From: Chloroflexota bacterium
Lineage (GTDB): Bacteria > Chloroflexota > Anaerolineae > Anaerolineales > VGOW01
Assembly: GCA_016875735.1 (NCBI GenBank)
Contig: VGOW01000015.1
Span: 2,311 to 66,310 of the forward strand
Direction: 5' to 3'
Length of the DNA: 64,000 nt
Shown here piece by piece: positions 3,302 through 52,764 of this stretch (within the stretch, counting starts at the first letter, position 1; every line of letters begins with the position of its first letter). The notes beneath the pieces were generated by a model. It worked only from the letters and a program-made list of their open reading frames with translations. It ran no database searches and had not been told where the DNA came from. The position numbers and the translations under genes are program-made.

Positions 3302-3571
3302 ATGACCGAAGCCTACATTATCACATTAGCGCAAAACTCTCTTCTGCTCGTGGCCGTCGTCGCCGGGCCGGTGTTGTTGTCGGGAATGGCGGTGGGCGTT
3401 TTGGTCAGCCTCCTTCAAGCGGCCACACAAATCACCGAACCCACGTTGACCTTTGTGCCCAAAGTGTTTGCCATCGGCCTCGTGCTCATCCTCTTCGGCT
3501 CGTGGATGGCTCAGCAATTGGTGGCCTTCACGGTGGGCCTGTTCACTTCTCTGCCCACTTTGGTGCGATAG
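3302..3571 (+). CDS. fliQ: Flagellar export apparatus protein FliQ
   Basis: 89 aa, two TM helices, 'LLQAATQITEPTLTFVPK' motif; GAGGTG Shine-Dalgarno upstream. Confidence 0.9.
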   Translation: MTEAYIITLAQNSLLLVAVVAGPVLLSGMAVGVLVSLLQAATQITEPTLTFVPKVFAIGLVLILFGSWMAQQLVAFTVGLFTSLPTLVR

Positions 3572-3572
3572 T

Positions 3573-4454
3573 ATGCCCGCGCCCTCTACTCAGAACGCTC
3601 GTGTGGTCGAAGCGCTGATGAAAGAAGTCAGCCGCTTGCGGCCACTGCCCGCTGCGGCCACTCAAGCCATTCAGATACTCGGCAACCCGCAGGTGGACAT
3701 CAAACATCTGGGCACGGTGCTCTCCGCCGATCAAGTGATCGCCGCGCAGATTCTGCGCCACGCCAACTCGGCTTATTATGGCGGCATCACTCCGTGCACC
3801 ACCGTAGCCGAAGGGATCGTGCGCATTGGCACCAAGCAGCTCAAAAGTGTGCTGTACGGCGTGGCCGCTGGCGGCATGTTGGGCAATCGACTCAGCGGCT
3901 ATCAAATGAAAGACGGTGAACTGTATCGGCACTCGCTCGTTGTGGCTACCGCCGCCCGCCGCTTGGGCATCTTGGTGCGTTATCCCGATCCCGAAGAAGC
4001 CTTCACTGCCGGCCTTTTGCACGACATCGGCAAACTACTGCTCGACCGCCACATGCAGCCCCGCTTTCAGAAAATGGCCGACGAAGTCAAACAGGGCAAA
4101 ACCATCATCCAAGTCGAAGAGACACACATTGGCACTGACCACGCCACCATCGGCGGCCTCATGGCCGAGCGCTGGTCCCTGCCGCGTGTGCTGGTGGACG
4201 CCATCGGTTTTCACCACGCGCCCACCCTCGCCGCCGCCCCGCGCCTTGCCGCCATCGTCGCCTTCGCCAACATCGTCGTGCTTCAGTCGGGAATCGGCCT
4301 CACCCCGTTGGGTGTCCCTCCTCTGCACCCCGAAATCGCCGCATTGCTCAAAATCGTCGAAGACGATATGGGCCGGCTGGCCTACACCCTGCGCCCCGAA
4401 ATCGAAGCCGCCAGCCGTCAGTTTCAAACAAACCTGCGGCCCGTGCCTGCCTAA
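3573..4454 (+). CDS. HDOD-domain signalling protein
   Basis: 293 aa from ATG 3573, 1 nt after the fliQ stop. 'LPAAATQAIQILGNPQVDIKHLGTVLSADQVIAAQILRHANSAYYGG...GLLHDIGKLLLD...IGTDHATIGGLMAERWSLP' matches the HDOD (HD-related output domain) pattern. Confidence 0.75.
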   Translation: MPAPSTQNARVVEALMKEVSRLRPLPAAATQAIQILGNPQVDIKHLGTVLSADQVIAAQILRHANSAYYGGITPCTTVAEGIVRIGTKQLKSVLYGVAAGGMLGNRLSGYQMKDGELYRHSLVVATAARRLGILVRYPDPEEAFTAGLLHDIGKLLLDRHMQPRFQKMADEVKQGKTIIQVEETHIGTDHATIGGLMAERWSLPRVLVDAIGFHHAPTLAAAPRLAAIVAFANIVVLQSGIGLTPLGVPPLHPEIAALLKIVEDDMGRLAYTLRPEIEAASRQFQTNLRPVPA

Positions 4455-9584: not shown

Positions 9585-9959
9585 ATGGCTGACGATACTG
9601 AAGATGATGAGCTGCTCGAAGAGCAGGAGGAGACACAGAAGGGCGAGGCCAAACCCAAAAAGCGCGACGCGGCGAACAAGGATGGTAATGAGACGTTCAT
9701 GCCCGCGCCGCTTACGCTGGAAGCGGCGCAGGCAATCGCCCGGCTGTTGCCGATCTTTGCCACGCTGGTGGTGATGGCTCTCAGCACACTCGCCAGCGTC
9801 GATCCCATCATCATCGGCGCGCGGGCCGTCGTCACATTGATTGTGACCGGGCTCTTCAGTTGGGTCTTCACGTATTTGTATGCCCACTTCTTCTTGTGGC
9901 TCATGGCCAAACCCAAACAGGCCGAAGCCGTGACGAGCACGAAATCGTGGGAAGCGTGA
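9585..9959 (+). CDS. Hypothetical membrane protein with acidic N-terminus, in the position usually held by flhG
   Basis: 124 aa. 'MADDTEDDELLEEQEETQKGEAKPKKRD' followed by 2-3 hydrophobic helices. Has a Shine-Dalgarno (GGTGAGGAG). No P-loop. Confidence 0.5.
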   Translation: MADDTEDDELLEEQEETQKGEAKPKKRDAANKDGNETFMPAPLTLEAAQAIARLLPIFATLVVMALSTLASVDPIIIGARAVVTLIVTGLFSWVFTYLYAHFFLWLMAKPKQAEAVTSTKSWEA

Positions 9960-10040: not shown

Positions 10041-10820
10041 GTGTCCACCCTCTCCGACGACAACGCCCTCTGGGCAAACTTTTTAGCAAGCCGCGATCCG
10101 GCCCTGCGCGAAGAAGCGATTCTGCGTTACGTGCCGTTGGTGCGCTACGTGCTGGGCCGCTTGGGTGTGGAGCCGGGGGGCGAATACGAAGACCTTGTGA
10201 GTCAGGGGTTGCTCGGCTTGATCGATGCAGTGGACAGATATGATCCTTCGCGCGGCACCGTTTTCAGCACCTATGCCACGCATCTCATCCGGGGCCGCGT
10301 GCTCGACGGACTCCGCTCGCTCGATCTGCTTTCGCGCCCGGCCCGCCGCCGCGTGCGCCAACTCCAGGCGGCGATGGCCGAACTTCAACAGCGTTTTGGC
10401 CGCCCGCCCGAAGAAGCCGAGGTGGCCGACTTCATGGGTTTGGAGATGAAGGCTCTCCAGCACACATTGGCCGACGCCGGGCGAGTCATTCTCTCGCTCG
10501 ACGCCAGCGAAGGCGACGACGAGAAGCCTGACCTGCACGAAACACTGGCCGACCCCGGCGACGACATGATCGACAGCCTCACCGAAGGCGACCTGCGCTC
10601 CGAACTCATGCAAGCCATTTCCGGGTTGCCGCTCCGCGAACAACAAATTCTCTCGCTGTACTATCGCGACGAGTTGACCATGAAAGAAATCGGCGAAGTA
10701 CTCAACCTCTCAGAATCACGCGTGTGCCAAATCCACGCCCGCTGTGTGCTGGCCCTCCGCTCGGCGATGGAGTTGCTCGACGCGCGTTCAGTGTCGGCTG
10801 AAACGGAGTTGTTGAGATGA
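10041..10820 (+). CDS. fliA: Flagellar sigma factor FliA/SigD (sigma-28)
   Basis: 259 aa, GTG start. Region 2 'YVPLVRYVLGRL...LVSQGLLGLIDAVDRYDPSRGTVFSTYATHLIRGRVLD', region 4 'REQQILSLYYRDELTMKEIGEVLNLSESRVCQIHARCVLALR'. Confidence 0.9.
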   Translation: MSTLSDDNALWANFLASRDPALREEAILRYVPLVRYVLGRLGVEPGGEYEDLVSQGLLGLIDAVDRYDPSRGTVFSTYATHLIRGRVLDGLRSLDLLSRPARRRVRQLQAAMAELQQRFGRPPEEAEVADFMGLEMKALQHTLADAGRVILSLDASEGDDEKPDLHETLADPGDDMIDSLTEGDLRSELMQAISGLPLREQQILSLYYRDELTMKEIGEVLNLSESRVCQIHARCVLALRSAMELLDARSVSAETELLR

Positions 10821-11260
10821 CGGAACGAATCGGCGCAAGCGATCTGCTTCGGGACACCGCTTACTTCGTGTCGCTGGCCCGCCGCGCCGCGCTCACATCC
10901 GATGACCCGGCGGTGCGCGAAAAGGCGATGCGACTCGGCCCGGTGGCGCGCGAACTGAAGGAAATCGCCAACGGCCAACCGCGCGATCTTGCCGCCGCCC
11001 CCGCACCCGTTGCCGCGCCGAAACCTTCGGCCAACGCGCCCGTTCCTCCCGCCGCCGCGGCCTCCGATTTTCGGACTCTGATCGATGCCGCCGCCCAAAA
11101 GCGTGAGCCTGCCGCCGCGCTCCGAAGCGACTCGCTAGATCGCACCACCGTTGCGCTGAGCATGGCGCAGGGCGGCGCGAACGGTATTGAGATCGCCAAA
11201 TCGCTCGGCATGACTCGCGGCGAAGTCGATCTTATCCTCAGCATTGCGAGGCAAAAATGA
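10817..11260 (+). CDS. Hypothetical protein translationally coupled to fliA (C-terminal HTH-like segment)
   Basis: ATGA overlaps at both ends (with the fliA stop and the next gene's start). 147 aa with an Ala/Pro-rich linker and C-terminus 'GGANGIEIAKSLGMTRGEVDLILSIARQK'. I recognise no family with confidence. Confidence 0.5.
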   Translation: MTERIGASDLLRDTAYFVSLARRAALTSDDPAVREKAMRLGPVARELKEIANGQPRDLAAAPAPVAAPKPSANAPVPPAAAASDFRTLIDAAAQKREPAAALRSDSLDRTTVALSMAQGGANGIEIAKSLGMTRGEVDLILSIARQK

Positions 11261-11865
11261 AAACGAAAACGATTCAATCATTCGCGCTTGCTCTCCTCCT
11301 CTTGTTAGCCATTGCGCCGTGGGTCTCGGCCAACGGCAACAATCAAGTGATCTTCCTCACCTTTCTGCCCGACGTGTCGAACTTCGGCAATCAATCGGCG
11401 TCGGGCATCGCCATCGTGGATTTGCACACGGGCGAAGTGTCGGTGCAGGCCACCAGCCTCACGCCAGTGAGCGGGAGCGCCTATCACGTTTGGCTCGCTG
11501 GACCCAATCTCTCTGGCGCGGTGCATATCGCCTCGCTGACGAGCGACGGCCACTTGCCCACCACCATTACTCAATTGCCATCGCAGGAATATCGATACAT
11601 TCTTCTCACATTGGAAGCCGATGGCGAAGCGCCCTCGGCGCCCGGTGAGAAACGATCTCTGGCGGGAGTCTTTCCCAATTCCGAGGCCCTCGCCCCCGTG
11701 GAAGGTGTGGGCAGCAGCGGGCAGGCCGTGGTCACCGATCCGCCCAAGTCGCAATTGCCGAACACGGGCGCAATCATTCCCGACCGCTGGTTATGGGCGG
11801 GCGCGGGTGTGCTGGCCGTGCTTGCGGTAGTGGCGGCGGGCGCGGTCATTGTCAAACGGAGGTAA
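11257..11865 (+). CDS. Secreted, sortase-anchored (LPXTG) protein with RskA-C-like extracytoplasmic domain
   Basis: Signal peptide 'MKTKTIQSFALALLLLLAIAPWVSA'. 'SAYHVWLAGPNLSGAVHIASLTSDG...YRYILLTLEADGEAPSAPGEKRSLAGVF' resembles the anti-sigma-K RskA C-terminal domain. C-terminal sorting signal: LPNTG (11755..11769), hydrophobic stretch, then KRR. Confidence 0.7.
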   Translation: MKTKTIQSFALALLLLLAIAPWVSANGNNQVIFLTFLPDVSNFGNQSASGIAIVDLHTGEVSVQATSLTPVSGSAYHVWLAGPNLSGAVHIASLTSDGHLPTTITQLPSQEYRYILLTLEADGEAPSAPGEKRSLAGVFPNSEALAPVEGVGSSGQAVVTDPPKSQLPNTGAIIPDRWLWAGAGVLAVLAVVAAGAVIVKRR

Positions 11866-11867
11866 CA

Positions 11868-12623
11868 ATGGTTCGAGGTTTTTATTCGGCGGCGTCGGCG
11901 TTGCTGGCCGGGCTGTTCCGCCAAGAGTTGCTCTCGCACAATATCGCCAACATCAACTTGGCCGGATACAAATCGCTCAACACCAGCATGGATGAGTTCG
12001 AGCCAAAACTGTTGTCGCGTATGCCCGGCGTGTCGATGCCCGGCACGGTGGGCGTTGAAGTGGGGCAGACGAGTTTGGGCGTGGCGCCCATCGGCACGGA
12101 GACATATTTCGCCGAAGGCTCACTGCGCGACACCAAACAGCCTTTCGATCTGGCGATCAACGGTGACGGATTCTTTCGGATATCGACTCCGAATGGCGAG
12201 CGTTTCACTCGCGACGGGCGTTTCACTCGCGATGAGAACGGCAACTTGGCGACGGTGGACGGATACTTGTTGCTAGGGGTTGACGGCCAGCCCGTGGTCG
12301 TGCCGCAGGGCGAAACGGCCATCGACGCCGACGGCGTCATCCGAGTGGATAATCAAGCCGGAGATCAAATTGCGCTGGCGGCGTTCGCCAACCCCGTCAC
12401 CGATCTTCAACGGGACGGCGCCAACACCTTTGCCGCGCTCGGCGAGGCCACAGCCTCCACCGCCGCCATTCGGCAGGGGATGCTGGAAATGTCGAATGTG
12501 GATGCCTCGCGCACGATGGCGCAGATGATCTCGGTTGCCCGGGCGTACGAAGCCGCTCAACGCGCCGTGCAATTGCAGGACGAGATGACGGGCAAAGCCG
12601 TCAACGAAATCGGGCGGCTGTAA
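11868..12623 (+). CDS. flgF: Flagellar rod protein (FlgF-like)
   Basis: ATG 11868 after GGAGG. 'MVRGFYSAASALLAGLFRQELLSHNIANINLAGYK' and C-terminal 'MISVARAYEAAQRAVQLQDEM' rod/hook family motifs. Confidence 0.8.
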   Translation: MVRGFYSAASALLAGLFRQELLSHNIANINLAGYKSLNTSMDEFEPKLLSRMPGVSMPGTVGVEVGQTSLGVAPIGTETYFAEGSLRDTKQPFDLAINGDGFFRISTPNGERFTRDGRFTRDENGNLATVDGYLLLGVDGQPVVVPQGETAIDADGVIRVDNQAGDQIALAAFANPVTDLQRDGANTFAALGEATASTAAIRQGMLEMSNVDASRTMAQMISVARAYEAAQRAVQLQDEMTGKAVNEIGRL

Positions 12624-12635
12624 AGGATGTGAGTC

Positions 12636-13400
12636 ATGACAACCACCGCGCTCACCGCGCTTCATGTTAGTGTGTCGGCCATGCTGGCCCGGCAGTTCGA
12701 GATGGATGTGATCTCGAACAACCTCGCCAATGTGAATACCACTGGCTACAAACCATCGCGGGCCGACTTTCAAGAATTGTTTGTCGAAGGCGTTCCCGAC
12801 AACCGATCCACCACGCCCTATCGCGGCACGGGGCCGGGCGTCACCCGGCGATCCACGTTGCCGGGCGCTCTCGCTCCGGCCAGCTCGCCGCTGGAGATGG
12901 CGATTGAGGGCGATGGCTTCTTTGCCGTGACTCAGCCCGACGGCACAACGGCGTACACGCGCGATGGGCGCTTTCTTCAGGACGGCGCCAATCAATTGGT
13001 GACGGTGACCGGCCAGCCGGTGGTGTGGGATGGAGCGCTTCCGCAAGAGGCCGAAGCCCTGCACGTCAATGTGGATGGCACGGTGATGGCCAGAGCGAAC
13101 GGGCAATGGACTCAGGTGGGCGCCATCGCCGTGTTTCGCTTCGACAACCCCGGCGGCCTTTTGGCGGCCGATGACAATCTGCTGGTGGTGTCGGAAGCGT
13201 CGGGCGATCCGGCGCAGGGGGTGGGGGGGCAGAATGGGTTCGGGCGAATCATCTCCGGCGCCACCGAGAACTCGGCCATCGATTACGCCGAAGAAGTCAC
13301 TTCGATGATTCTGGCTCAACGGGCCTACACAATGTCCATCAAAGCCTTTCAGCAGACGGATGAGATGATGGGTATGGCAAACCGCCTGCGAAGCGGATAA
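12636..13400 (+). CDS. flgG: Flagellar distal rod protein FlgG
   Basis: 'DVISNNLANVNTTGYKPSRADFQELF' and C-terminal 'IDYAEEVTSMILAQRAYTMSIKAFQQTDEMMGMANRL'. Confidence 0.85.
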   Translation: MTTTALTALHVSVSAMLARQFEMDVISNNLANVNTTGYKPSRADFQELFVEGVPDNRSTTPYRGTGPGVTRRSTLPGALAPASSPLEMAIEGDGFFAVTQPDGTTAYTRDGRFLQDGANQLVTVTGQPVVWDGALPQEAEALHVNVDGTVMARANGQWTQVGAIAVFRFDNPGGLLAADDNLLVVSEASGDPAQGVGGQNGFGRIISGATENSAIDYAEEVTSMILAQRAYTMSIKAFQQTDEMMGMANRLRSG

Positions 13401-13417: not shown

Positions 13418-13444
13418 GAAAGTTTTACGCGGGAGAGCCGATAA
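13418..13444 (+). promoter_or_regulatory. Sigma-28 (FliA) type promoter for flgM-flgN-flgK...
   Basis: GAAAGTTT-N11-GCCGATAA against the enteric/Bacillus consensus TAAAGTTT-N11-GCCGATAA. Lies 54 nt upstream of the flgM ATG. Confidence 0.65.
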
Positions 13445-14346: not shown

Positions 14347-15756
14347 ATGACAACGATATTCTCCGGCCTCAACTTGGCTCTGCGCGCGATGCTGGCTCAT
14401 CAGCAAGCGCAGTTGGTGACCGATCACAACATCTCCAACGTCAATACGCCCGGCTACACACGCCAAGAGGCCGTCCTCGCCACCGCCGCCCCCTACACTC
14501 GCAACGCTTTCAACAGGCCCGAGACCGGTTTGCAGTTGGGCATGGGCGCGTATGTGTCGAGCATTCGCCGCTTCACCCTCGACTTCTTCGACCGCCGCCT
14601 GCGCGAAGAAATTGCCTCCACCGCCGATTGGGGCGAGCGATCACAAATCCTTCAGCAGATCGAATCTGTTCTGCACGAATCCGAAACCTCCGGGCTGGGG
14701 CGCCAACTCAACCAATTCTGGAGCGCGTGGCAGAATCTCAACAATGATCCGGCCAGCATGGTCGCTCGCGGCGCCGTCATCAGCTCGGCTGAAGCCCTCA
14801 CCCAAACCATCCACGATCGCCATGTGGCGCTGGATGCGATGCGCCGCGATGAAGACGCCCTCATCGGCTCGCTGGTCGGCGACATCAACACAAAGGCCAA
14901 CGCCATCGCCGGACTCAATATCCAAATCATCAATGCCATCGGCGCGGGGGATAACCCCAACGATCTTCTCGACCGGCGAGATGTGCTCCTCAACGAACTG
15001 GCCGAAGTCGCTGGCACCACCGTGCACTTCGAACCGAACGGCGACGCCTATGTTTCGCTGGGCGGCCATATCCTTGTGGCCACCGGCAAAACTCAAACGC
15101 TGAGCACCGCCCCCGACGGCGCGAACCCGGGCATGTCCAAAGTGGTGTGGGCCGACGGCACGGACGCGATCATCCGAAACGGGCGCATTGCCGGAGCCGT
15201 TGATGCGCGGGACACCGACATTCGCTCGCGCATGACGGCCCTCGACACGTTGGCCTCCGCACTCATCACTCAAGTCAATGACATTCACAACGCCGCCTTT
15301 GGCCTCGACGGCAGCAACGGCCGCCTTTTCTTTTCCGGAAGCACTGCCACCGACATCGCCGTGAGCTCGGCGCTGGCCGCCAACCCCACCCTCATCGGCG
15401 CGGCGCAATCCGCCGCCACCATTCCCGGCGACGGAAGCCAAGCGCTGGCGATTGCTCAATTAGGCAATGCCTTGGTGATGTCGGACGGCACGCGCACCAT
15501 GAACCGCTATTGGGCCGACACCATTGCGCAACTCGGCCTCGACACCCAACGGGCCGATTACGAAAGCGAGAATCATAAAACCGCCCGCGAGGCTATGGAG
15601 AGACAAAAGCAATCGGTCACCGGCGTGTCGCTCGACGAAGAGGCGGCTCGGCTGGTGCAGTCGCAACGCGCCTACGAAGCCGCCGCGCGCGCCCTGACCG
15701 CCTTCGATCAAATGGCCGACACTATCATCAATCGAATGGGAATTGTGGGCAGATGA
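14347..15756 (+). CDS. flgK: Hook-associated protein 1 FlgK
   Basis: 'LVTDHNISNVNTPGYTRQEAVLA' N-terminus and 'SVTGVSLDEEAARLVQSQRAYEAAARALTAFDQMADTIINR' C-terminus. Confidence 0.9.
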   Translation: MTTIFSGLNLALRAMLAHQQAQLVTDHNISNVNTPGYTRQEAVLATAAPYTRNAFNRPETGLQLGMGAYVSSIRRFTLDFFDRRLREEIASTADWGERSQILQQIESVLHESETSGLGRQLNQFWSAWQNLNNDPASMVARGAVISSAEALTQTIHDRHVALDAMRRDEDALIGSLVGDINTKANAIAGLNIQIINAIGAGDNPNDLLDRRDVLLNELAEVAGTTVHFEPNGDAYVSLGGHILVATGKTQTLSTAPDGANPGMSKVVWADGTDAIIRNGRIAGAVDARDTDIRSRMTALDTLASALITQVNDIHNAAFGLDGSNGRLFFSGSTATDIAVSSALAANPTLIGAAQSAATIPGDGSQALAIAQLGNALVMSDGTRTMNRYWADTIAQLGLDTQRADYESENHKTAREAMERQKQSVTGVSLDEEAARLVQSQRAYEAAARALTAFDQMADTIINRMGIVGR

Positions 15757-16967
15757 CGTTGACAGACTCGATTTCGACTATGGCAAGATTCTTACCGATT
15801 ACTCCCATCTCCAGCGCTCAATCTCTCGTGCCCCCGCTGGAGAAGCATCTGGTGCGGGGAGCAGACGAGGAAAGCGGCCGCGTGCTCATTGTGGACGACG
15901 ACACCGACGCGCGGGCATGGCTCTCCGATCTGCTCGCGGCCGAGGGCTACCGTTGCGATGGCGCAAGCGAAAGCCAAGACCCGTTGAACTGCATCAACGA
16001 ACTTACGGCGTTGGTGATTTTGGATTTGCACTCGCCTGCCATGTACGGAATGGAACTGCTCCGGCGCATCACAATGGAGCATCCCGGCATTGCCGTTCTC
16101 GTCGTGGGCGGGCAGGGCGATGTAGCGGTGGCCGTGCGGGCCATGCGGTTGGGCGCATATGATTTTGTGCCGCGCCCCTTCTATCCCGACGATTTGATCC
16201 TGCGCGTTCAACGCGCCTTCGCATGGCGGCGGCTCATTGTGCGCAACCATCTTTATCAGCACGAGCTTGAGTCGGCCATCGAGCTTCAACGCGAAGCGCT
16301 CACGCTGGCGCTCGGCGAACTCCGGCGCACCTATCAAGCCACGCTCGAAGCCCTCACCGGCGCGCTCGACCTGCGCGACAAAGAAACGGAGGGCCACTCG
16401 CGCCGCGTCACCGAATACTCCACCGTGCTCGCCCGAGCCATGAACGTGGACGACGACGCCCTTGACGTGATCCGGCAGGGCGCGTTACTGCACGACGTGG
16501 GAAAGATCGGCATCCCCGATTCGGTGCTGCACAAACCGGGGCCGCTCACCACCGAGGAATGGGCGCTGATCAGAAAGCATCCGCAGATCGGATACGATCT
16601 GCTCAAGGGCATCGGCTTCCTCAGTGAAGCCGTCTCCACCATCGTGCTGAGACACCATGAGCGATACGATGGAACCGGCTACCCCGATGGACTGCGGGGA
16701 AACGACATTCCGTGGGGAGCGCGAATCTTCGCCGTGAGCGACACGCTCGACGCCATCACCGCCGACCGGGTGTACCGCAAAGGGAGATCTTTGGCGGTGG
16801 CTCGCGCCGAGATCAGCCGCCTCTCCGGAAAGCAATTCGATCCCAAGGTTGTCGAAGCCTTCATGTCCATCCCCGATCAAACGTGGTACACCATCCAAAA
16901 CGCGGTGGCAATTCTGTGCTCGCGGATGCAAGGAGTGAACTATGCGCATTACCGATCGCATGATTAG
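15753..16967 (+). CDS. Response regulator with canonical HD-GYP c-di-GMP phosphodiesterase domain
   Basis: REC: 'RVLIVDDDTDA...LVILDLHSPAMYGMELL...YDFVPRPF'. HD-GYP: 'HSRRV','LLHDVGKIGIP','HHERYDGTGYPDGLRGNDIPWGARIFAVSDTLDAITADRVYRKG'. ATGA overlap with the flgK stop; the 3' end overlaps the flgL start by 26 nt. Confidence 0.85.
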   Translation: MTLTDSISTMARFLPITPISSAQSLVPPLEKHLVRGADEESGRVLIVDDDTDARAWLSDLLAAEGYRCDGASESQDPLNCINELTALVILDLHSPAMYGMELLRRITMEHPGIAVLVVGGQGDVAVAVRAMRLGAYDFVPRPFYPDDLILRVQRAFAWRRLIVRNHLYQHELESAIELQREALTLALGELRRTYQATLEALTGALDLRDKETEGHSRRVTEYSTVLARAMNVDDDALDVIRQGALLHDVGKIGIPDSVLHKPGPLTTEEWALIRKHPQIGYDLLKGIGFLSEAVSTIVLRHHERYDGTGYPDGLRGNDIPWGARIFAVSDTLDAITADRVYRKGRSLAVARAEISRLSGKQFDPKVVEAFMSIPDQTWYTIQNAVAILCSRMQGVNYAHYRSHD

Positions 16968-18553: not shown

Positions 18554-19864
18554 GTGTCTATGACGATTCTGCCCGTTGCCTCAACCATACCGATGCTCAA
18601 ATTTGCCTCCAGCCGTGCCGCCACCAGCCCCTTTTCGGCGACCGACCACACCCTTCTGGTCGTGGACGACGAAGTTTACACGCTTCATCTTCTCGAATTG
18701 CTTTTCCGGCACGATGGGTATCGAGTGCTCACGGCGAGTTCGGCGGAAGAAGGGCTGGATGTGCTGGGGCGGCATCAAGTGTCGCTGGTCATCTCCGACG
18801 AACGGCTTCCCGGAATGAGGGGCGTGGAATTTTTGATGCGCGTTCGGCAGAATTGGCCCGATACCTTTCGGATCATTTTGACTGCGTACGCTGACACACA
18901 GGCGGTGATTAATTCCATCAACGACGGGCACGTGTACCGCTTCATTACCAAGCCGTGGGATAACAACGACCTGCGGCAGATCGTTCGCGATGCTTTGCGC
19001 CGGTTCGACATTACCAAAGAAAACCGGCGCCTCAATGCGCTCATTCTTCAGCAGTTCGCCGAACTGCGGACGATGAATGAATCGCTGGAACAAAAAGTTG
19101 CCGAGCGCACTGCCGAAGTGGAAACTAAGAATCGGCACTTGCAGGAAACCATGCTGGAGGTGGTGCGCACGCTGAGCGGCATTTTGGAAATGCGCGGCGT
19201 GGGAGCCAAAGGCCATGCCCTGCATGTAAGCCAGGCGTGCGATTGGGTGGCGGGCTTGCTGGCGCTTTCTGCCGAGCAACGGTTGGAATTGGGCATGGCG
19301 GCCATGCTTCACGATATTGGCAAAGTGGGCTTGCCCGATGAGTTGCTGCGCAAAGATTCGATGGCCTACACTCGCACCGAGACGGCGGTGTTCCGCGAAT
19401 ACTGTGTGCTGGGGCAATCCATCATTTCCGGGATCCGGCAATTGGAGAACGTCGGGCGCATCATCCGCCACCAGCGCGAATGGTGGAACGGAGCCGGTTT
19501 CCCCGACGGGTTGGCCGAAGAGCAGATTCCGATTGAGTCGCGCATTATCGCGGCGGTCGATGCCTACGAGGAGCGCCCCGATCAAGCGTTGTTGGAGCAG
19601 GGGAGCGGGCGGCGGTTCGATCCGGAAGTGGTGACGGCCTTCGTGGCTTACTTGGCCGATCGGGCGAGTGTGCGCGGCGAGTCGGCGCGCGCGATGCTGC
19701 CACACGAATTGCGCGAAGGCATGATTCTGATGAACGATGTGTACACCGGGCGCGGGCTGTTGTTGTGCACGGGCGGCAAGGCCATCGACAAGACAACGCT
19801 GGAGAAGATTCGCAACTTCAATCGAGTCGATCCGATCTTGGGCAAGATTTATGTGAGGGGCTGA
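18554..19864 (+). CDS. Response regulator with degenerate HD-GYP domain
   Basis: REC: 'TLLVVDDEVYT...LVISDERLPGMRGVEFL...YRFITKPW'. The HD part is intact ('MLHDIGKVGLP'), but the HHExxDGxGYP block reads 'HQREWWNGAGFPDG'. Extra C-terminal segment 'LREGMILMNDVYTGRGLLLCTGGKAID'. Confidence 0.8.
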   Translation: MSMTILPVASTIPMLKFASSRAATSPFSATDHTLLVVDDEVYTLHLLELLFRHDGYRVLTASSAEEGLDVLGRHQVSLVISDERLPGMRGVEFLMRVRQNWPDTFRIILTAYADTQAVINSINDGHVYRFITKPWDNNDLRQIVRDALRRFDITKENRRLNALILQQFAELRTMNESLEQKVAERTAEVETKNRHLQETMLEVVRTLSGILEMRGVGAKGHALHVSQACDWVAGLLALSAEQRLELGMAAMLHDIGKVGLPDELLRKDSMAYTRTETAVFREYCVLGQSIISGIRQLENVGRIIRHQREWWNGAGFPDGLAEEQIPIESRIIAAVDAYEERPDQALLEQGSGRRFDPEVVTAFVAYLADRASVRGESARAMLPHELREGMILMNDVYTGRGLLLCTGGKAIDKTTLEKIRNFNRVDPILGKIYVRG

Positions 19865-24117: not shown

Positions 24118-24666
24118 TTATCCTCCTCCCCGATAAGCCGAATAGAGATTGAGGATGCGCGGCACGTATCGCTGTGTCTCGGCGTACGGGGGGATGCCGT
24201 TGTACTTGTCCACTGCGCCCGGCCCGGCGTTGTAGGCCGCCAGCGCGAGCGAAACATTTTGATCGTAGCGGTCGAGCAGCTGCCGAAGAAGTTTCGCGCC
24301 GCCCTCCACGTTTTGCGTTGGGTCGAAAGAATTGCTCACGCCGAGTCCGGCGGCGGTGCCGGGCATGAGCTGCATGAGGCCGCGCGCGCCCGCTTTAGAA
24401 ACGGCGCCCGAATTGAAATTCGATTCGGCGTGCACGACGGCCTTCACCAGCGCGGGATCGAGCCGGTAGCGTTGCGAAGCCTGCGCGATGAGCGAGTCGA
24501 ATGCCGAAGGGTTGCGCGCGCCGATGTCACGCGCGGCGGGATACACCCATTCGCCGTTGGCGAGGGCGGGGGCGCTGGTGGTGCTGAACTGCTGAAGCAT
24601 TTGCATGATAAGCCGCACGAGCATCAGTTGTAACTGCGTATCCGGGCCGTTGATCATTCCGAACAT
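24118..24666 (-). CDS. Flagellum-associated lytic transglycosylase (SLT domain)
   Basis: ATG 24666 lies just after the fliJ stop. 'VHAESNFNSGAVSKAGARGLMQLMPGTAAGLGV...LAAYNAGPGAVDKYNGIPPYAETQRYV' is an SLT/goose-lysozyme fold signature. N-terminal 'QLQLMLVRLIMQMLQQF' is reminiscent of a FlgJ rod-binding motif. Confidence 0.8.
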   Translation of the reverse strand: MFGMINGPDTQLQLMLVRLIMQMLQQFSTTSAPALANGEWVYPAARDIGARNPSAFDSLIAQASQRYRLDPALVKAVVHAESNFNSGAVSKAGARGLMQLMPGTAAGLGVSNSFDPTQNVEGGAKLLRQLLDRYDQNVSLALAAYNAGPGAVDKYNGIPPYAETQRYVPRILNLYSAYRGGG

Positions 24667-24676
24667 GGCTGCCGTC

Positions 24677-25132
24677 CTATTGCTGACTCTTTTGATAAGC
24701 CTGCGCGATGTAAATGTCGTCGCGTTCGGCGGCTTCGCGGCGGGCCTCTTCGGCCAGCCAACGTTCACGCTCGCGCGCCTTCAGCTTCTCCAACGTCTCT
24801 TTGGCTTGCTGGGCCAGAACCACTTCCTGCCGTTTGGCCGTGATCTGCGGCTGAAGATCGTTGAGCTGCCGCGAAAGCGCAGTGATCTGCAACTGCACGC
24901 CGCGAATCTGGGCCCGCAGTTGATTGATGGTCATCATGTCAAGGATGCCAATCTGGCGCTGGGCCAATGTGCCGAACAAATCCTGCTCGGCCAAATGCAG
25001 TTTTTGGATAGCCACTTTGAGCATTTGCTCGGCGGCGAGCAATTGCGCCAACGCAATTTCGAGCGACTCGACGATGCGATGGCGATAATTGAGAACGGGC
25101 TGAAGCGAGAATTGTTTTGGCATATGAATCAA
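24677..25132 (-). CDS. fliJ: Flagellar export chaperone/stalk protein FliJ
   Basis: About 150 aa coiled-coil protein 'LQPVLNYRHRIVESLEIALAQLLAAEQ' directly after fliI. Start is TTG 25132 (overlaps the fliI stop) or ATG 25123. Confidence 0.7.
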   Translation of the reverse strand: MIHMPKQFSLQPVLNYRHRIVESLEIALAQLLAAEQMLKVAIQKLHLAEQDLFGTLAQRQIGILDMMTINQLRAQIRGVQLQITALSRQLNDLQPQITAKRQEVVLAQQAKETLEKLKARERERWLAEEARREAAERDDIYIAQAYQKSQQ

Positions 25133-30807: not shown

Positions 30808-32163
30808 TTACATTCCTTTGAGCGCATCCACAATGGGGCTGGTGTGGTTGGGTTGGAAGAGCGCTTGCCATTCCCACGCCGAGTCGCTGCTGCCGCCCAG
30901 CGAATTGGCCAGCACCCAATAGGTGTAGGCGAAGTTGTGCGGCGCGCGCGAGTCCTGCATGTATTTCATCGCGCTGGCCACCAGCGATGTCTGCGCGGCT
31001 TCGCTCATCGTCTCGCCGACGAAACTGCCGCCCTCGGTGCCGATGATGGGCATCTGCCGTCCCAGCTCCTCGCGGATGATCGAATCGTATTGATCGACGC
31101 GAAGCAGGCCATCGGCATCGGCTAGCGGTTTGTCGCCCATGTAGTTGTGCGCCGCCAGCCAAGCATTATCGAGCACCGGAGTTTCGCCGCGCGCTTTGAT
31201 GCCGCGCAGAGCCTCGCGCAAGAATTGGCGGTCGTCGGCGCGCAATGGCGAATCGGGCGCGGGGCCGCCGGGCGAGAGCGCACCGAATCCCGGCAGGCCG
31301 CCGTTCTCGGCCACCACCTTCGCCGCCGGAATCCACGCGTCGAGGTAACGGTTCACATCGGGGGCGTGGCCGTTGTTTTCGATTTCGTGATTCGGCTCGT
31401 TGTAAAGTTGAAAGTAACTCACGCCCATCGCCCGATAATGCCGAACCATTGCGCCGAGATCGCCGCCGATTGGGTCCAGCCCCGACGTGTACACGCGCAT
31501 GATCGGCTCGATGCCGTTGGCCGCGAGTTTTTGCACGAGATAATCGTTGCGCCCGATGTCCGCGCCGTCGTTGAGGATCACCGTCCATTTCACTTTCATA
31601 TCGGCCAGTTCTTGCGCAAATTGATCGACGACTTCGGGTGTGGATGATTTGGTGGGGATCCAATGGATGCCGCGACCGTTATCGCCCGCCGGGCGGGGGA
31701 ACGCGCTGAGGGGCATTGCGCCAGTGGGCGCAGTGGGAGTGGGCGCCGCCACCGGAGCGAGGCTTTGACTCTGAGCCTGTTGCGCGGGGAACGGTTGGGA
31801 AACGAGGTCGGTGAGAGTCGGAGTCGATGCCCCTTCGGGAATGTAAACGGGGATGAATGTCCAGCGTCCGGCGTTCTGATAGGCGCGGGTGGCGACGGCG
31901 GGCGCGTATGTCATTCCCATCAAATTGTTGAGAGGCGTGGGCGTCGAATTGAAAGAGTTGAATGAGTTATCGAAGAACGGCAGTGATGGCATCGAGTACG
32001 GCGATGCGGTTTGCAGTTCTTGCGCCATGCGAACGAGCGCTTGCCCCAACAGCATGGCGAAGGAGGCGAACTGCGAGCCTTGCCCCGCGCCCGGCTGTCC
32101 GTTGCTCAGCAGGGCGGAGGGGAAATATGTTGGCAGCGATGGGAAATTGAAGGAATCGGTCAT
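30808..32163 (-). CDS. Putative clan GH-A-like glycoside hydrolase with disordered, signal-peptide-less N-terminus (first gene of the flgC...flgE operon)
   Basis: 451 aa. About 150 aa of Pro/Ser/Gln-rich N-terminus containing 'FASFAMLLGQALVRMAQEL'. Then a TIM-barrel-like region with 'YFQLYNEPNHE' (NEP acid/base-like) and 'MPIIGTEGGSF' (TE-G nucleophile-like). Family assignment is by motif only. Confidence 0.5.
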   Translation of the reverse strand: MTDSFNFPSLPTYFPSALLSNGQPGAGQGSQFASFAMLLGQALVRMAQELQTASPYSMPSLPFFDNSFNSFNSTPTPLNNLMGMTYAPAVATRAYQNAGRWTFIPVYIPEGASTPTLTDLVSQPFPAQQAQSQSLAPVAAPTPTAPTGAMPLSAFPRPAGDNGRGIHWIPTKSSTPEVVDQFAQELADMKVKWTVILNDGADIGRNDYLVQKLAANGIEPIMRVYTSGLDPIGGDLGAMVRHYRAMGVSYFQLYNEPNHEIENNGHAPDVNRYLDAWIPAAKVVAENGGLPGFGALSPGGPAPDSPLRADDRQFLREALRGIKARGETPVLDNAWLAAHNYMGDKPLADADGLLRVDQYDSIIREELGRQMPIIGTEGGSFVGETMSEAAQTSLVASAMKYMQDSRAPHNFAYTYWVLANSLGGSSDSAWEWQALFQPNHTSPIVDALKGM

Positions 32164-32312: not shown

Positions 32313-32975
32313 TTAACTCCCGGCGGGTTTGGCAATGATGATGACTCGATGACTGTTGGTGTAATAGGGCCAGCAGGTCACCAACGTGAGTCGCGTGTCG
32401 CGAGTGCGTTCGATGTAAGTTGAGTAGGCTCTCTCTTGTTCCGGCGAGATGCCCCAGTCGGGCAAGATGAGCCGCTCGACAACTTGAAAGTCGAGGGCTT
32501 GGCCCTGCGTATTGAGCACGATGTGTTCGCCGATGGGGATTTCGGAAATGCGCCGGAAGACTTCGCCCTGCGTATTGTGATGGCCGGCCAGCACGGTGTT
32601 GCCGGGCTGGCCGGGGTAGGCCGAATTCTCAAGCCAGCCCGCCGATCCATTGGGAACGATCCACTCGCCGCCGGGCGTCCAGTTGGTGGGGGCGACGGGG
32701 GCATCGAGGCCGATGCTGGCGACGACGACGCGCTCTGGGGGAAGGGTGGGGGCGGTTTCGGGGAGGAGGGCTGGCAGAGTGGCAATAGGCGCGGCGGCGG
32801 GCGCAGAGGGCACGCCGCCCGATTCGGCCAGCGCGGTGCTGAGAGGAACAGCGCCGCCCACTCGATGCGGCTCGCGGGTGGGCGCGGCGGCGCAGGCGGC
32901 GATGAAGATGGCGATTGGCAGATAGCGGATAGCAGATAGCGGATGACGAATTGAGGGGAGAAGAGTGTGACTCAT
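32313..32975 (-). CDS. Sortase-family transpeptidase
   Basis: N-terminal TM anchor, 'NTVLAGHHNTQGEVF' (catalytic His), 'RLTLVTCWPY' (TLxTC Cys) and 'SHRVIII' (Arg). Confidence 0.8.
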   Translation of the reverse strand: MSHTLLPSIRHPLSAIRYLPIAIFIAACAAAPTREPHRVGGAVPLSTALAESGGVPSAPAAAPIATLPALLPETAPTLPPERVVVASIGLDAPVAPTNWTPGGEWIVPNGSAGWLENSAYPGQPGNTVLAGHHNTQGEVFRRISEIPIGEHIVLNTQGQALDFQVVERLILPDWGISPEQERAYSTYIERTRDTRLTLVTCWPYYTNSHRVIIIAKPAGS

Positions 32976-32993: not shown

Positions 32994-33024
32994 GAAAACC
33001 TCCCGAAGGTTGGGCTTCGGGAGG
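32994..33024 (-). terminator. Hairpin plus T-run between fliS and the sortase gene
   Basis: Minus strand: CCTCCCGAA-gcccaac-TTCGGGAGG followed by TTTTC. Ends 19 nt before the sortase ATG. Confidence 0.5.
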
Positions 33025-33035
33025 TTGGGTGTTCG

Positions 33036-36928: not shown

Positions 36929-36955
36929 TTATCGGCAGGGGCAGGCCCAACTTGG
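36929..36955 (-). promoter_or_regulatory. Sigma-28 (FliA) type promoter of the flagellin gene
   Basis: Minus strand CCAAGTTG-N11-GCCGATAA, about 170 nt upstream of the fliC ATG. Confidence 0.65.
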
Positions 36956-37067: not shown

Positions 37068-40000
37068 TCATGGCATCATCCGCAGGACATGTTCTCCCAG
37101 CGCATCTAAGGCTTCAGCCACCTCTGTGCCGCCGAGGATATGCGCGGCTTGAGCGTTAGATCGGACTATTGCCACGAAATCGCTGTTGAATCGATCTCGA
37201 TAGTGTTCTAGCGCCTCGTCCACATCGTTGGCATTGAGCAAGCATTGGAAGGTTTCTAGCGCGGGCGGTTGCAGTGCGGCCTTCAATGGAGATTGCAGTA
37301 GGCGGTCGATGTGGGCGGCAAGGTTGTACAGCGCGGATGCAAGTTCAGAGTTGCCGTCCGCTTCGGCCGTGTCCGCGTTGAGTCGGACGAGCGCCAACAT
37401 TTCGGTGTCCAACTGATCGACGTGTTTGGCAAGAGCGGCGGCCAGATCATTCTGACTGAGGAGGAACTGCAATGTGTTGACCGCTCGTTCGCTGAAGGTG
37501 GGCGTGATCTGTGGAGTGAGCGAGAATGAAATGGGGTATGGCTGCCATCCATCCTCGCCATCGCCGCCCAACTGTGAGCACAAGTGCATCCATGATTGGC
37601 GAACTATCAAATTGCCCGGCTGTAAATGGATGAATGCCCGCAGGCAGTCGCCGCACTCGGCGATGCGCTGTTGTTGCAAGTGCTCTTTCGCGGCGGTCAG
37701 TATCATTTCTGGCGATTGATTCATGGTTTGGCGGTTCAGCCAAACAGTGGCGCCTGCCGGGGAGCGCCGATAAGTTACCGCGCCGACTTGTGTGTAGCTC
37801 GGATCGTTGTGGATGGCCGTGCTTTCTGGGCAACACCGCACCCGGAAACCAGCGCGCAAGGCTCGCTGAGAGAAATCCACGTCCTCGTTGCGCCGGAAGC
37901 CCAGGTTTTCGTCCCAGCCGATTGCCTCCCAAACTCGGGCGCTGACCATTAGCAGGCCACTGGTGAGATATAGATGTTCGTCCGGCTGGCCGTATGGCAG
38001 GAGGTGGTGGCCCGTTGGGCCGCCGATGGTTGTCCAATCCCAATGCCGCGTGCCATCTACGTTCAGCAACCGACCAACGAGTATGTCGTGAGACTCGAGA
38101 TGGGGTTGGAGCCCGGCATACCAGCCGGGTTGCAGAACAATATCGTCGTCGCAAAAGACGATGTGGCTGTATTTGCTGTGGGCGGCGGCGCTGTTGCGAA
38201 GGGAACTGGTATTTCCAGCGTTGGCGGCATCGGGCATTTCCAGCGAGGCCACGCCGGGCATTGGTTCTGCGATCCCGGCCACAATGATTTCGTATGAAGG
38301 AATGTCCTGTTGGTGGATGCTCCGGATCAGCCGCCGCAGTTTCTCATTGCGCTGGCCGGCCGAGATGATGCAGAAGCTGACGCCAGATGGCCGCTCGGCG
38401 CTCTTCCGCGCAGGCTCGCTTGCGCTGGCTTGGTGCAACTCCAAACCGCTGCTCAGCGCCTCGGCGCGTATGCTTTTCATCAGGTTGACTGCGCTCGCCG
38501 GAGACGTGGGCTCGGCAGGCACTCGGCCCGACTCTATTATGCTTGCCCAGCGCTCCACAACACTTGACCATGCATGACACGCTTGCCAATACTGATATCC
38601 GGCTTCTCCCATAGACTGCCGCAGGGCAGGGCGCTCCGCCAAAAAGGCCAGCGCCTGAGGGAAGTGGCGCAAGGGCACAATGAGGCCGCCAGCCTGCTCG
38701 GTCGCCGCGCCGCATTCGGGCGTGACTAACCAAGGCTTGCGATGACTCATGGCCTCCAATATGGTAACGGGCGAGACCTCACCTTTGGATGCCAGCACGA
38801 CCACGTCTGCGGCCTTCATGGCCGCGGCTACATCTTGACGAGGCAACCCCGGGATGTAGAGCGCTCGTGGGTTTTTTCGGATAGCCTCCATCACTGCGGC
38901 GCCGTACGCCGCCTCGCCGGACTCGCGGGCCGGATGTCCAATCATCACCAACCGCCAGTTATCTGGCAGTGAACGCAACGTTTCAAGCAAGCCAAGATGG
39001 TTTTTGACTGACCAGAGGTTGGCTACATGAAGAATGACGAACTCATCAGCGCCCAGCCCATGCTTAAGGCGGAAATCGCCGCTCGGTTCTATGGGCTCAG
39101 TGGCATGTGGCATGAAAGCATAAGGAATGCGATCCTCTTCGAGATATTGTGTATCCACACCGGAATGGCTGGCCGCCAGAACGGCAGTCGCATTGCGCAG
39201 AATGACGCCAAGCCGCTGGCGAAACTCGCGCCGATTGCGCCATGAGTTATAGCCATCTTGGTTGATCATCAACTGCACAATGAAACGAGTCTGTTTGGGC
39301 CACTGAGCCGATTCCACTGACCATATAAACTGGTTGCACGGATCGGCATACATGATCACAGCATCATATTGGCCAGACAAGGCTAACAGGCGCAACTGCA
39401 GCACCCACGCTGGCTCACCGCTGCGCCTCGGCTGTGTATCGAGTGGAAGTATGTGCACGCCGCGATAGATATGGTCCGCCCTATCGGGAATGGCAAATGT
39501 CGCCACCTCGACCGTGTAACCCTTATCAACCAAATGACCTCCAAGCGCCTCGACTTGCGCTTCCAACCCTCCCACAGAGGGCCAAAAATACGGGGCTGCC
39601 AGCAGCACTCTTTTTTGTTGCCTGCCCGACTCTGTTGTTGAAGCCGACACGAGAACGGATTCTTGATAGCGTGATCCGTCAAGGCCGAGCACACCCGCCC
39701 ACTCGTGCGCGACCCGACTCGCGTCGCTGGCCTCGAACAAATCGTTTTCGTGCGTGTGCGCGTCGAAGGCGACTGGCACAGGGCGAACCGCGATTGCAGC
39801 AGCCGAAGCGCTGGGTATTGCAGACTGCCCCGCCAACCCGCGAAGGTGCTCTGCAAGTCCTGAGATCGCGTCGCCGCGCGAGAGCATTGTGTCGGTCGCC
39901 CATGCTCGCAGTGATTCGCCGCTTTCGGTTGACGGTTGGCGGCAAGCGGTCAAAAAGGCATCGCGCGTGGTCAGGCGTGGCACGTGCTGATACCAGTCGG

Positions 40001-42062: not shown

Positions 42063-42113
42063 GGTGTGTGCCTTTGCTTTTGGAAATTTCCACTAACCGC
42101 GCATGATGAACCA

Positions 42114-44276: not shown

Positions 44277-45540
44277 ATCGAATCGCTTGCAGAAGATCGG
44301 GGTCGTTGTGCCCGGCGGCGACGGCGATGTTGAAATGAGTCAGGGCCTGCGCCGGGCGATTGGTTTCGGCGCACAGAAATCCGAGTTGACGGTGGGCGTC
44401 GGCGTGCGATGGATCGATGCCGAGCGCGGTGTCGAAAGCCATTTCGGCTTCGGCGTGGTTGCCCATAAGGCTGTGCGCCAATCCAAATGAGCAATACACG
44501 TCGGGCGTGCGCAAGCCGTCGTCGAGCACGCGATGAAAATGGTTGAGGGCTTCGGGCAGGCGGCCAAGATAGGTGAGGCATTCGGCGAGCTGCAAACGCA
44601 AATGCTCGTCGGAGCGGTCGAGCACTGCGCCCTCTGCCGCAGATTGGCGCGGAAGGCCGAGCGCGCGCTCCATTGCGGGCACGGCTAACTCCACCCGATC
44701 CAACTGCACGTACACATTGGCGGCGGCGCTCCAGATCATACGGTCGCCGGGGAAGGCGCGGGTGGCGTCTTCCACCCGCCGCAGAGTCGCCTCGCGGCTT
44801 TCGAGGCCGGGCGAGAGGTTGATGAGCATGGTGTGGGCGTTGGCTTTCATGCGCCGCTCGGCGCTGGGCGAGGTGATCACCCATACCAATTTTTTCAGCG
44901 CCTCCATCTTGCGGCCCACGCGCACGTAAGCGCGAGCCAGATAGTATTGCGAGAGCGTGTCGTTCGGGTCGGCCTGCGATTCTAAAATTCGCATGTCGCG
45001 TTCGCCGCGCGCGGCCATCGCCGCATCGGTCATGTAGCCGAAGTGCATCACCACGATATCGGTCATTTGCGGCGGCATCTTGCGGGCGATGAGCGATGGC
45101 AGAATGTCTTCGTGGACTCGGCCAATGAATTCGACTCCCGGCGCGCGCTTGAACAGCCACGGCTGTGAAATGATCTCGGTGGTGACGCCGTCGGCGCGCG
45201 GGCTGTGGATGTTGAGGTAATACGATCCGGCTGAGCCGGACTCGGCGGCGCGGCGAATCTTTTCCGCGCCCCCGGCCGCCACTTCCATATCGGCGTCGAG
45301 CATGAGCGCCCACTCGCCGCTGGCGCGGGCGATGGCCGCGTTCTTTGCCGCGGCGAAATCGTCGCGCCATTCGAAGCGGTGGACGATTGCGCCGAGCGTT
45401 TGGGCCAGCGCAACGGTGCCGTCGGCGGAGCCGGTGTCCACCAGCACAATTTCATCGGCGGCGCCTCGCGCAGAGTCGAAGAGCCGCCGCAGGTTGGCGG
45501 CTTCGTTCTTGGCGATCAGGCATAGCGAAATGCGAGTCAT
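44233..45540 (-). CDS. 435-aa GT2-TPR glycosyltransferase (paralog of the preceding gene's core)
   Basis: 'ISLCLIAKNEAANLRRLFDSARGAADEIVLVDTGSADGTVAL...WALMLDADME' followed by TPRs. ATGA overlap with the upstream 1884-aa gene. Confidence 0.8.
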   Translation of the reverse strand: MTRISLCLIAKNEAANLRRLFDSARGAADEIVLVDTGSADGTVALAQTLGAIVHRFEWRDDFAAAKNAAIARASGEWALMLDADMEVAAGGAEKIRRAAESGSAGSYYLNIHSPRADGVTTEIISQPWLFKRAPGVEFIGRVHEDILPSLIARKMPPQMTDIVVMHFGYMTDAAMAARGERDMRILESQADPNDTLSQYYLARAYVRVGRKMEALKKLVWVITSPSAERRMKANAHTMLINLSPGLESREATLRRVEDATRAFPGDRMIWSAAANVYVQLDRVELAVPAMERALGLPRQSAAEGAVLDRSDEHLRLQLAECLTYLGRLPEALNHFHRVLDDGLRTPDVYCSFGLAHSLMGNHAEAEMAFDTALGIDPSHADAHRQLGFLCAETNRPAQALTHFNIAVAAGHNDPDLLQAIRYVKAQTQTSQNGHA

Positions 45541-52755: not shown

Positions 52756-52764
52756 GTCGAGTTG

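Follow-up and report, generated by a model that had tools for sequence, protein, structure and literature searches.

We have found that a gene for a predicted sortase substrate is a fixed member of the flhA-flhF-fliA-X-flgF-flgG unit of flagellar genes across Chloroflexota, where X denotes the gene in question. The gene lies at 11257..11865 on the plus strand of a 64,000-nt stretch of DNA from a Chloroflexota bacterium of the order Anaerolineales (assembly GCA_016875735.1, contig VGOW01000015.1, positions 2,311 to 66,310), and the whole of this stretch is referred to here as the window. Its product, which we call the LPXTG protein, belongs to a protein family and is not a single gene's curiosity. 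With moderate confidence, and from sequence-based evidence, it is considered to be a Chloroflexota-specific, wall-anchored flagellar accessory protein that acts where the rod meets the wall, as a collar, bushing or anchor.

Background

How flagella are held and guided through monoderm envelopes without L and P rings is poorly understood, and the question was raised for Chloroflexota with the genome of Thermomicrobium roseum. The P- and L-ring genes are absent from that genome, and attachment of the flagellum was said to remain "ambiguous" (Wu et al. 2009, PMC2615216). Chloroflexota are described as being without flgH and flgI, and Tepidiforma as having a 20-30 nm peptidoglycan layer together with an S-layer (PMC10284905). 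No FlgH, FlgI or FlgA was found among the window's open reading frames (ORFs) that were scanned, in agreement with the proposal of an earlier note on this DNA that the organism is without L/P rings. The same note knew of no described sortase-anchored flagellar component. Full-text literature searches joining sortase or LPXTG with flagellar terms, and covering recent reviews and preprints about the diversity of flagella and the motility of Chloroflexota, likewise returned no report of such a component or of this family. The parts (an LPXTG signal, a sortase, an RskA_C-like domain and lineage-specific flagellar accessories) are known; the combination is not.

Results

The LPXTG gene encodes a predicted secreted precursor with a complete sorting signal

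The gene begins with ATG in the ORF list and encodes a 202-aa product predicted to be a secreted precursor with a signal peptide, an RskA_C-like sandwich domain, a short linker and a complete sorting signal. The Sec-type signal peptide (residues 1-25; 11257..11331) was read by inspection as MKTKT followed by a hydrophobic core and a predicted cleavage site between VSA and NG, and in alignments a Sec-type signal is conserved in every homologue. The predicted beta-sandwich domain (approximately residues 28-140; 11338..11676) is followed by a Pro/Gly/Ser-rich, low-complexity linker (residues 141-166; 11677..11754), which is marked by alignment gaps and by a predicted local distance difference test score (pLDDT) below 50, and which varies across the family in both length and sequence. 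The sortase recognition motif LPNTG (residues 167-171; 11755..11769) then precedes a hydrophobic helix (residues 172-199) and the basic tail KRR (residues 200-202), which together occupy 11770..11862. The stretch between LPNTG and KRR, AIIPDRWLWAGAGVLAVLAVVAAGAVIV, comprises 28 mostly hydrophobic residues. The NCBIfam NPXTG-anchor model NF033846 passes on the window protein (24.0 bits against a cut-off of 23.5), and a six-frame scan found no second ORF with a C-terminal sorting signal in the window. Because this is the sole such ORF in 64 kb and the motif is conserved across the family, the sorting signal is not attributed to chance. The Sec signal and the LPNTG-helix-KRR signal read in the earlier note are thereby confirmed by sequence, by NF033846 and by family conservation.

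The gene is closely packed between its neighbours. Its start overlaps the stop of the preceding 147-aa gene (ATGA, 11257-11260), and the start of that gene overlaps the fliA stop in the same manner (ATGA, 10817-10820), so that both of the overlaps on which translational coupling had been proposed are present in the sequence. GAGG, a Shine-Dalgarno-like sequence, stands 6 nt before the ATG of the LPXTG gene. The TAA of the gene (11863-11865) is followed 2 nt beyond by the flgF ATG (11868), which is itself preceded by GGAGG. Identical proteins and gene calls (259, 147, 202, 251 and 254 aa) were present on nine contigs from several samples.

The LPXTG protein belongs to a family of Chloroflexota

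A word-indexed search returned 12 close homologues with 54-65% identity, all of them with LPxTG, and an exhaustive profile search returned 173 cluster representatives at E<=1e-3. All named members are from Chloroflexota, and public records label them "hypothetical protein" or, in one NCBI record, "anti-sigma factor domain-containing protein". A scan of a genome collection with an alignment of the close clade yielded one locus, in an uncultured Anaerolineales metagenome-assembled genome. The usual plan, mostly within 200-250 aa, is a signal peptide, the domain, a variable linker, LPxTG, a helix and a basic tail. The mature N-terminus "ANG" is at least 90% conserved and nearly invariant, and the domain carries a conserved YLPxVSN(W/F)G(P/N) loop across the family. 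Among 65 diverse members, the L, P, T and G of the sorting motif are each conserved in at least 90%. LPx[TS]G with a membrane helix and a basic tail occurs in 143 of the 157 members in the full-length range (91%), and the rest are mostly truncated or end in a plain membrane helix with a basic tail.

Three unusual gene calls were encountered. P0036 is one call in which a complete FliA is in frame with a complete family member (signal peptide, domain and LPVTG), P0097 joins the family domain to a FlgF D1 domain, and P0014 has two tandem copies of the domain ahead of LPETG. Errors of sequencing or of gene calling may account for the fusions in P0036 and P0097; a genuine P0036 would amount to a membrane-tethered sigma-28.

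The position between fliA and flgF is conserved

Forty metagenome loci were fetched by means of a 16-sequence sub-alignment around the YLxGVSNWGP motif and mapped by tblastn with the window proteins; all loci compared were retrieved through the family gene itself. The family gene lies between fliA and flgF in 50 loci, at 25-65% identity. fliA is upstream in every one of the 43 loci that have at least about 580 nt of upstream sequence, and flgF is directly downstream in 35 of the 36 with more than 500 nt of downstream sequence. The sole exception for flgF, L043 (71..679), is a copy without the linker and LPXTG that is joined to an acyl-CoA dehydrogenase/metabolic region; either the assembly is chimeric here or the cluster has decayed. 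Synteny around the gene is kept in close relatives (L001, L003, L004, L007) and in relatives at 25-31% identity (L011-L013). Three close and three distant relatives share the order flhA-flhF-...-fliA-(small gene)-X-flgF-flgG-flgM-flgN-flgK, in which most neighbours overlap by 4 nt. About 19 of 43 loci do without the small gene that otherwise separates fliA from the family gene.

The arrangement extends to a cultured organism. On the megaplasmid of T. roseum DSM 5159, fliA is followed by a gene for a 127-aa membrane protein, WP_012642757.1, flgF, flgG and flgM. WP_012642757.1, annotated as a "hypothetical protein", has a C-terminus consisting of LPQTG, a helix and ARRAR. In the genome paper of T. 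roseum, fliA (trd_A0041) and the rod genes (trd_A0044-5) are named, whereas the two genes between them are not (PMC2615216).

Over equal distances the family protein has diverged to 25-35% identity and FlgF to 30-41%. The family protein thus diverges about as FlgF does, which points to selection similar to that on a rod protein. A correlation between the identities of the family protein and of FlgF was dropped as a measure of co-evolution, as its r of 0.92 arose from two clusters and was uninformative within the distant set.

The earlier note had named loss of this neighbourhood in relatives as grounds for giving up its flagellar proposal. The neighbourhood was found to be conserved, and the flagellar association now draws on a fliA-X-flgF position that recurs in some 50 independent loci with identities as low as 25%, and in the cultured Thermomicrobium.

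The domain is related to RskA_C at the family level

When searched alone, the window LPXTG protein had no Pfam match, and it matched the C-terminal part of an NCBIfam antisigma model weakly (E 1.1e-3; 19 bits against a cut-off of 100). PF10099 (RskA_C) is matched by 21 of the 65 diverse family members, with a best E of 2.3e-14. By these profile matches the domain is a divergent RskA_C homologue, real at the level of the family. The resemblance to RskA_C suggested in the earlier note is thus borne out for the family, whereas the window protein itself is without a Pfam match.

An AlphaFold2 (AF2) model of the mature domain, built from an alignment of 32 diverse sequences, is an eight-stranded beta-sandwich followed by a disordered linker (pLDDT 78 overall and about 90 in the core; predicted template modelling score 0.72). 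It replaced a poor model of the full-length protein that had been built with 13 close homologues (pLDDT 58). A Foldseek search of the domain model against PDB returned nothing at E<=1e-3; in geometry the domain came closest to Cu,Zn superoxide dismutase (TM-score about 0.5), a generic Greek-key sandwich. A profile search of the domain against PDB sequences gave only noise. Homology to FlgI or FlgH was found by none of Pfam, NCBIfam, PDB fold and PDB profile searches. An N-terminal cytoplasmic anti-sigma domain (zf-HC2/ASD) with a transmembrane helix was not found in the LPXTG protein with Pfam and NCBIfam, and since the protein is without a cytoplasmic anti-sigma domain and without an N-in membrane helix, it is not regarded as an RskA-type anti-sigma factor.

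A sortase gene lies in the flagellar cluster

A sortase of 220 aa (Pfam Sortase, E 1.2e-23) is encoded at 32313..32975 on the minus strand, between fliS and an orphan gene of 451 aa. Its catalytic triad of H132, C201 (in TLVTC) and R210 is intact and invariant in 21 homologues. It scores below every NCBIfam cut-off for classes A-F, the best being class E (64 bits against 160). From its sequence and location, it is a candidate for the dedicated transpeptidase of the LPXTG protein. Other substrates within the window were considered and rejected: no other ORF there has a sorting signal, and the large ORFs nearby encode glycosyltransferase/TPR proteins and no surface proteins.

Between the fliS stop and the sortase ATG there is a 12-bp GC-rich hairpin followed by UUUU (32997..33026, minus strand; dG -25.7 kcal/mol, z -4.5, with 0 of 200 shuffles as stable). 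It was not flagged by a simple terminator scan, there being four U residues only, and looks like a terminator or an attenuator. Because this hairpin separates the two genes, membership of the sortase in the fliS operon is uncertain in the window. The coordinates and the identity of the sortase given in the earlier note hold, with the gene on the minus strand, while its placement in a flagellin/fliS operon is in doubt. The gap between fliS and the sortase is only 4 nt in a more distant relative.

Sortases of 48-62% identity hold the same slot in other loci, in the order fliC-fliD-flaG-fliS-sortase-orphan(450-560 aa)-flgC-fliE-fliF (L008, L010, L014/15). In L009 a sortase of 47% identity lies about 3.5 kb past fliS and beyond a two-component pair, in a cluster broken by transposases. 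In L018 the sortase lies downstream of fliD and ends a convergent fliS-fliD operon, about 5 kb from a family gene whose product is a 33% identical member. Two of the cluster sortases share metagenomes with close homologues of the LPXTG protein. A sortase from Ardenticatenia with a similar score is located among housekeeping genes. Recruitment of a sortase into the flagellar cluster is lineage-specific, whereas the target gene is phylum-wide.

The orphan 451-aa protein (30808..32163, minus strand) is encoded directly after the cluster sortase and, in relatives, before flgC-fliE-fliF. Its relatives have 54-66% identity and 450-560 aa, and the position is always kept. There was no Pfam, NCBIfam or PDB match and no Sec signal. 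The N-terminal third is Pro/Ser/Ala-rich and of low complexity, and a "YNEPNHE" motif occurs further on. One guess would be a hydrolase of the wall that leaves the cell through the flagellar type III system.

The gene is predicted to be expressed with export-gate and rod genes

On the plus strand there is no terminator-like site from fliA to flgG. The sigma-28-type -10 box GCCGATAA occurs in the intergenic DNA of the window solely upstream of flgM (13437..13444, plus strand) and of the flagellin gene fliC (36929..36936, minus strand), and no sigma-28-type box was found upstream of the LPXTG gene or the sortase. The strict sigma-28 consensus TAAA-N15-GCCGATAA has no match in the window, so flgM and fliC are marked by the -10 box alone. 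These sequences suggest that the two boxes belong to FliA-dependent late promoters of the cluster. As the box marks a boundary after flgG, the LPXTG gene is assigned to the upstream flhA..fliA..flgG unit. The uninterrupted run from fliA to flgG, with a sigma-28 box only after it, leads to the prediction that the gene is expressed with the export-gate and rod genes and before the late genes.

Neighbouring genes

The window is almost wholly a flagellar and chemotaxis supercluster. The plus strand starts with fliM, fliN/Y, fliP, an HDOD gene, fliR, flhB, flhA, flhF and a gene for a 124-aa two-helix membrane protein, and continues with fliA, the 147-aa gene, the LPXTG gene, flgF, flgG, flgM, flgN, flgK, REC-HD, flgL and REC-HD. 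The minus strand carries flgE, fliK, an SLT gene, fliI, fliH, fliG, fliF, fliE, flgC, the 451-aa orphan, the sortase, fliS, flaG, fliD and flagellin. Beyond flagellin are very large glycosyltransferase/TPR genes and then cheA, cheB, cheR, cheX and MCP.

fliA (10041..10820, plus strand) encodes a sigma-28 of the FliA/WhiG family, with Pfam Sigma70 r2/r3/r4 and a TIGR02479 score of 209 bits, above the cut-off. The 147-aa protein (10817..11260, plus strand) is cytoplasmic and has a C-terminal segment resembling a helix-turn-helix; its weak C-terminal matches to DUF6115 (E 6.6e-5) and DUF2802 (E 1.4e-4) are below the Pfam cut-offs. Its gene, coupled in translation to fliA on one side and to the LPXTG gene on the other, is not present in every such operon. 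An N-terminal membrane helix occurs in the counterpart from T. roseum and not in the window version. DUF2802 is FipA, a partner of FlhF (PMC11620751). flgF (proximal rod; 11868..12623, plus strand) has Pfam FlgE/F/G D1 and Flg_bbr_C and matches TIGR02490 at E 1.5e-51, with 175.1 bits against a cut-off of 178.5. flgG (distal rod; 12636..13400, plus strand) matches TIGR02488 at E 8.3e-62.

The 124-aa protein (9585..9959, plus strand) between flhF and fliA has an acidic N-terminus and two predicted membrane helices, and a small family-less ORF (89-124 aa) occupies the same flhF-fliA slot in distant Chloroflexota loci and in T. roseum. flhG (MinD-like) does not follow flhF in the clade of the window; it is present in L011, and a PilZ gene stands there in several distant loci. 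An HDOD gene (3453..4454, plus strand) is inserted between fliQ and fliR, a position kept in close relatives, as are two REC-HD_5 response regulators (15753..16967 and 18554..19864, plus strand) that flank flgL/fliW/csrA. The HDOD and REC-HD_5 genes hint at second-messenger control built into the flagellar cluster.

On the minus strand, a gene with a wall-hydrolase SLT domain lies within the cluster at 24118..24768. flgB (...NIANAETPGY...) follows it at about 24000, far from flgC, and the usual flgB slot is occupied by the 451-aa orphan. Beside flagellin, four very large genes (37068..51191; 1664, 720, 435 and 1884 aa) on the minus strand encode GT2 and GT4 glycosyltransferase domains together with FkbM methyltransferase and numerous TPR domains, and are probably a flagellin glycosylation island. 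They are followed by a gene with an FGE-sulfatase domain at 51952..52944.

Discussion

Because the gene has a fixed place by flgF/flgG, is translationally coupled and is constrained like a rod protein, a basal-body role at the junction of rod and wall is the reading that we prefer for the LPXTG protein. Following established sortase biology, the precursor would leave the cytoplasm through Sec and stay in the membrane by way of its C-terminal helix, after which the sortase would cleave LPNTG between T and G and join the Thr to a peptidoglycan precursor. The beta-sandwich would then sit in the zone of the wall on a tether of about 26 residues. Gene position and co-translation with the rod proteins suggest that the protein comes into play during rod assembly, as a structural element that is fixed to the wall, does not rotate and lies beside the distal rod. 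In an envelope made up of a membrane, thick peptidoglycan and an S-layer, such a collar, bushing or anchor might do part of the job of the missing P ring. A stronger form of the proposal, which we offer only tentatively, is that the sortase of the flagellar cluster fixes sandwich subunits round the distal rod as a wall-bonded bushing or collar that replaces the P ring and would be the first covalently anchored flagellar part. More speculative still, the near-invariant Asn-Gly at the mature N-terminus could be the sortase nucleophile, with subunits ligated head to tail into a closed ring.

Several points weigh against a structural wall anchor. Gene position is the sole argument for a structural role, and linkage to fliA is as tight as that to flgF. 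The only known relatives of the domain are anti-sigma sensor domains, not structural ring proteins. Members that end in a plain helix may mean that covalent attachment to the wall is dispensable. A cluster sortase is not universal, the sole sortase of the T. roseum megaplasmid being located among housekeeping genes. To our knowledge, Firmicutes flagella cross thick walls without any such protein.

Kinship of the domain with the extracytoplasmic domain of anti-sigma factors, reflected in the name given by one NCBI record, raises the alternative of a regulator or checkpoint sensor on the envelope side. As in RskA-type anti-sigma factors, the RskA_C-like domain would respond to the state of the wall or of assembly, and it would signal through a membrane partner, such as the two-helix protein at 9585..9959 or the small DUF6115/DUF2802-like protein, to FliA or the export gate. 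The gene follows a sigma-factor gene in all loci, as in sigma/anti-sigma pairs, and the tightness of its linkage to fliA is equally compatible with this alternative, as are the in-frame FliA of P0036 and the small membrane proteins that flank fliA in many loci. We nevertheless judge a sensor unlikely. There is no cytoplasmic anti-sigma domain; the cytoplasmic part is KRR only before cleavage, and none of the protein would be left in the membrane after it. FlgM and FlgN are present, flgM with a sigma-28-type promoter, about 40% of loci lack the small upstream gene, and the P0036 fusion is a single metagenomic gene call that may be a sequencing error. The option raised in the earlier note, that the protein is the sensor half of a sigma-28 regulator, looks less likely for the same absence of a cytoplasmic remainder, the presence of FlgM and the frequent loss of the small gene, and also because that gene's product is FipA/DUF6115-like and not anti-sigma-like.

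Membership in a unit with export-gate and rod genes, not late genes, would also suit an assembly factor, that is, a wall-tethered adaptor that marks or prepares the site where the rod crosses, or that recruits or restrains wall hydrolases (the SLT protein of 24118..24768 or the 451-aa orphan); a variant would be a chaperone of rod or hook subunits outside the membrane. The presence of the SLT gene in the cluster fits this, as does the order in which the sortase always precedes the 450-560-aa orphan and then flgC-fliE-fliF. On the other hand, the LPXTG protein has no domain known for binding to hydrolases or to peptidoglycan, covalent anchoring seems needless for a transient factor, and no fusion or co-variation links the protein to hydrolases, and we regard an assembly factor as rather improbable. 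That the protein is an ordinary adhesin or wall protein, carried as a passenger in a flagellar operon, is very improbable indeed, even if LPXTG proteins are usually displayed on the surface: the coupled fliA-flgF position is kept across classes (Thermomicrobia among them) from 65% to 25% identity, the copy in L043, which alone departs from it, is truncated, and a passenger gene would not persist through such divergence.

Comparison with known systems sets the LPXTG protein apart in each case. It shares with RskA-type anti-sigma factors (PF10099; RskA/SigK of M. tuberculosis) a homologous beta-sandwich and an adjacent sigma-factor gene. It is without their cytoplasmic anti-sigma domain, has a cleavable signal peptide in place of the N-in transmembrane helix of RskA, and would be tethered C-terminally through LPXTG, whereas RskA is tethered N-terminally through the membrane. 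Its neighbouring sigma factor is FliA (group 3) and not an extracytoplasmic function sigma, and the family has the conserved "SN(W/F)G(P/N)" loop and the "ANG" mature N-terminus. Dedicated-sortase systems with one sortase and one target (SrtB-IsdC, the class C pilin and class D sporulation sortases) resemble the present case in the complete sorting signal, in a sortase within the same functional gene cluster and in there being a single ORF with a sorting signal in 64 kb. They differ from it in that the cluster here is flagellar, the sortase fits no NCBIfam class A-F at cut-off, about 20 kb separate the sortase gene from that of its presumed target, which is on the other strand, and T. roseum has no cluster sortase.

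Like FlgI of the P ring and other lineage-specific periplasmic flagellar scaffolds, the LPXTG protein is predicted to be exported by Sec and not by the flagellar type III system, and to reside at the level of the peptidoglycan, in organisms that are without FlgH and FlgI. Its gene stands beside flgF/flgG, as flgH/flgI do in the flgB-J operon. It has no kinship in sequence or fold to FlgI, the spirochaete collar, the FlgT/FlgP rings or the FlgY E-ring, and the predicted covalent attachment by sortase is, in the literature searches, described for no flagellar part.

A further likeness is to the genes that follow flagellar sigma factors (swrB after sigD in B. subtilis, and fipA/DUF2802 after flhF-flhG-fliA), where a lineage-specific accessory likewise follows fliA. 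Judged by its sequence matches, the 147-aa gene (10817..11260) may belong to this swrB/fipA-type group. The domain of SwrB is cytoplasmic, as is that of FipA, whereas the LPXTG protein is predicted to be extracytoplasmic and anchored to the wall. FipA is N-terminally anchored, with a cytoplasmic domain (PMC11620751), and a study of SwrB describes it as a monotopic protein of the membrane and an activator of the flagellar type III export apparatus (PMC4526659).

Conclusions

Flagellar operons of Chloroflexota contain, phylum-wide, an unannotated core gene that is constrained like a rod protein and whose product carries a predicted signal for covalent attachment to the wall. Functional flagellar clusters of Chloroflexota may be recognised in genomes by the presence of the family. 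Should the protein belong to the motor, it would represent a new cellular role for sortases, a new type of anchoring for the flagellum and the reuse of an anti-sigma sensor domain.

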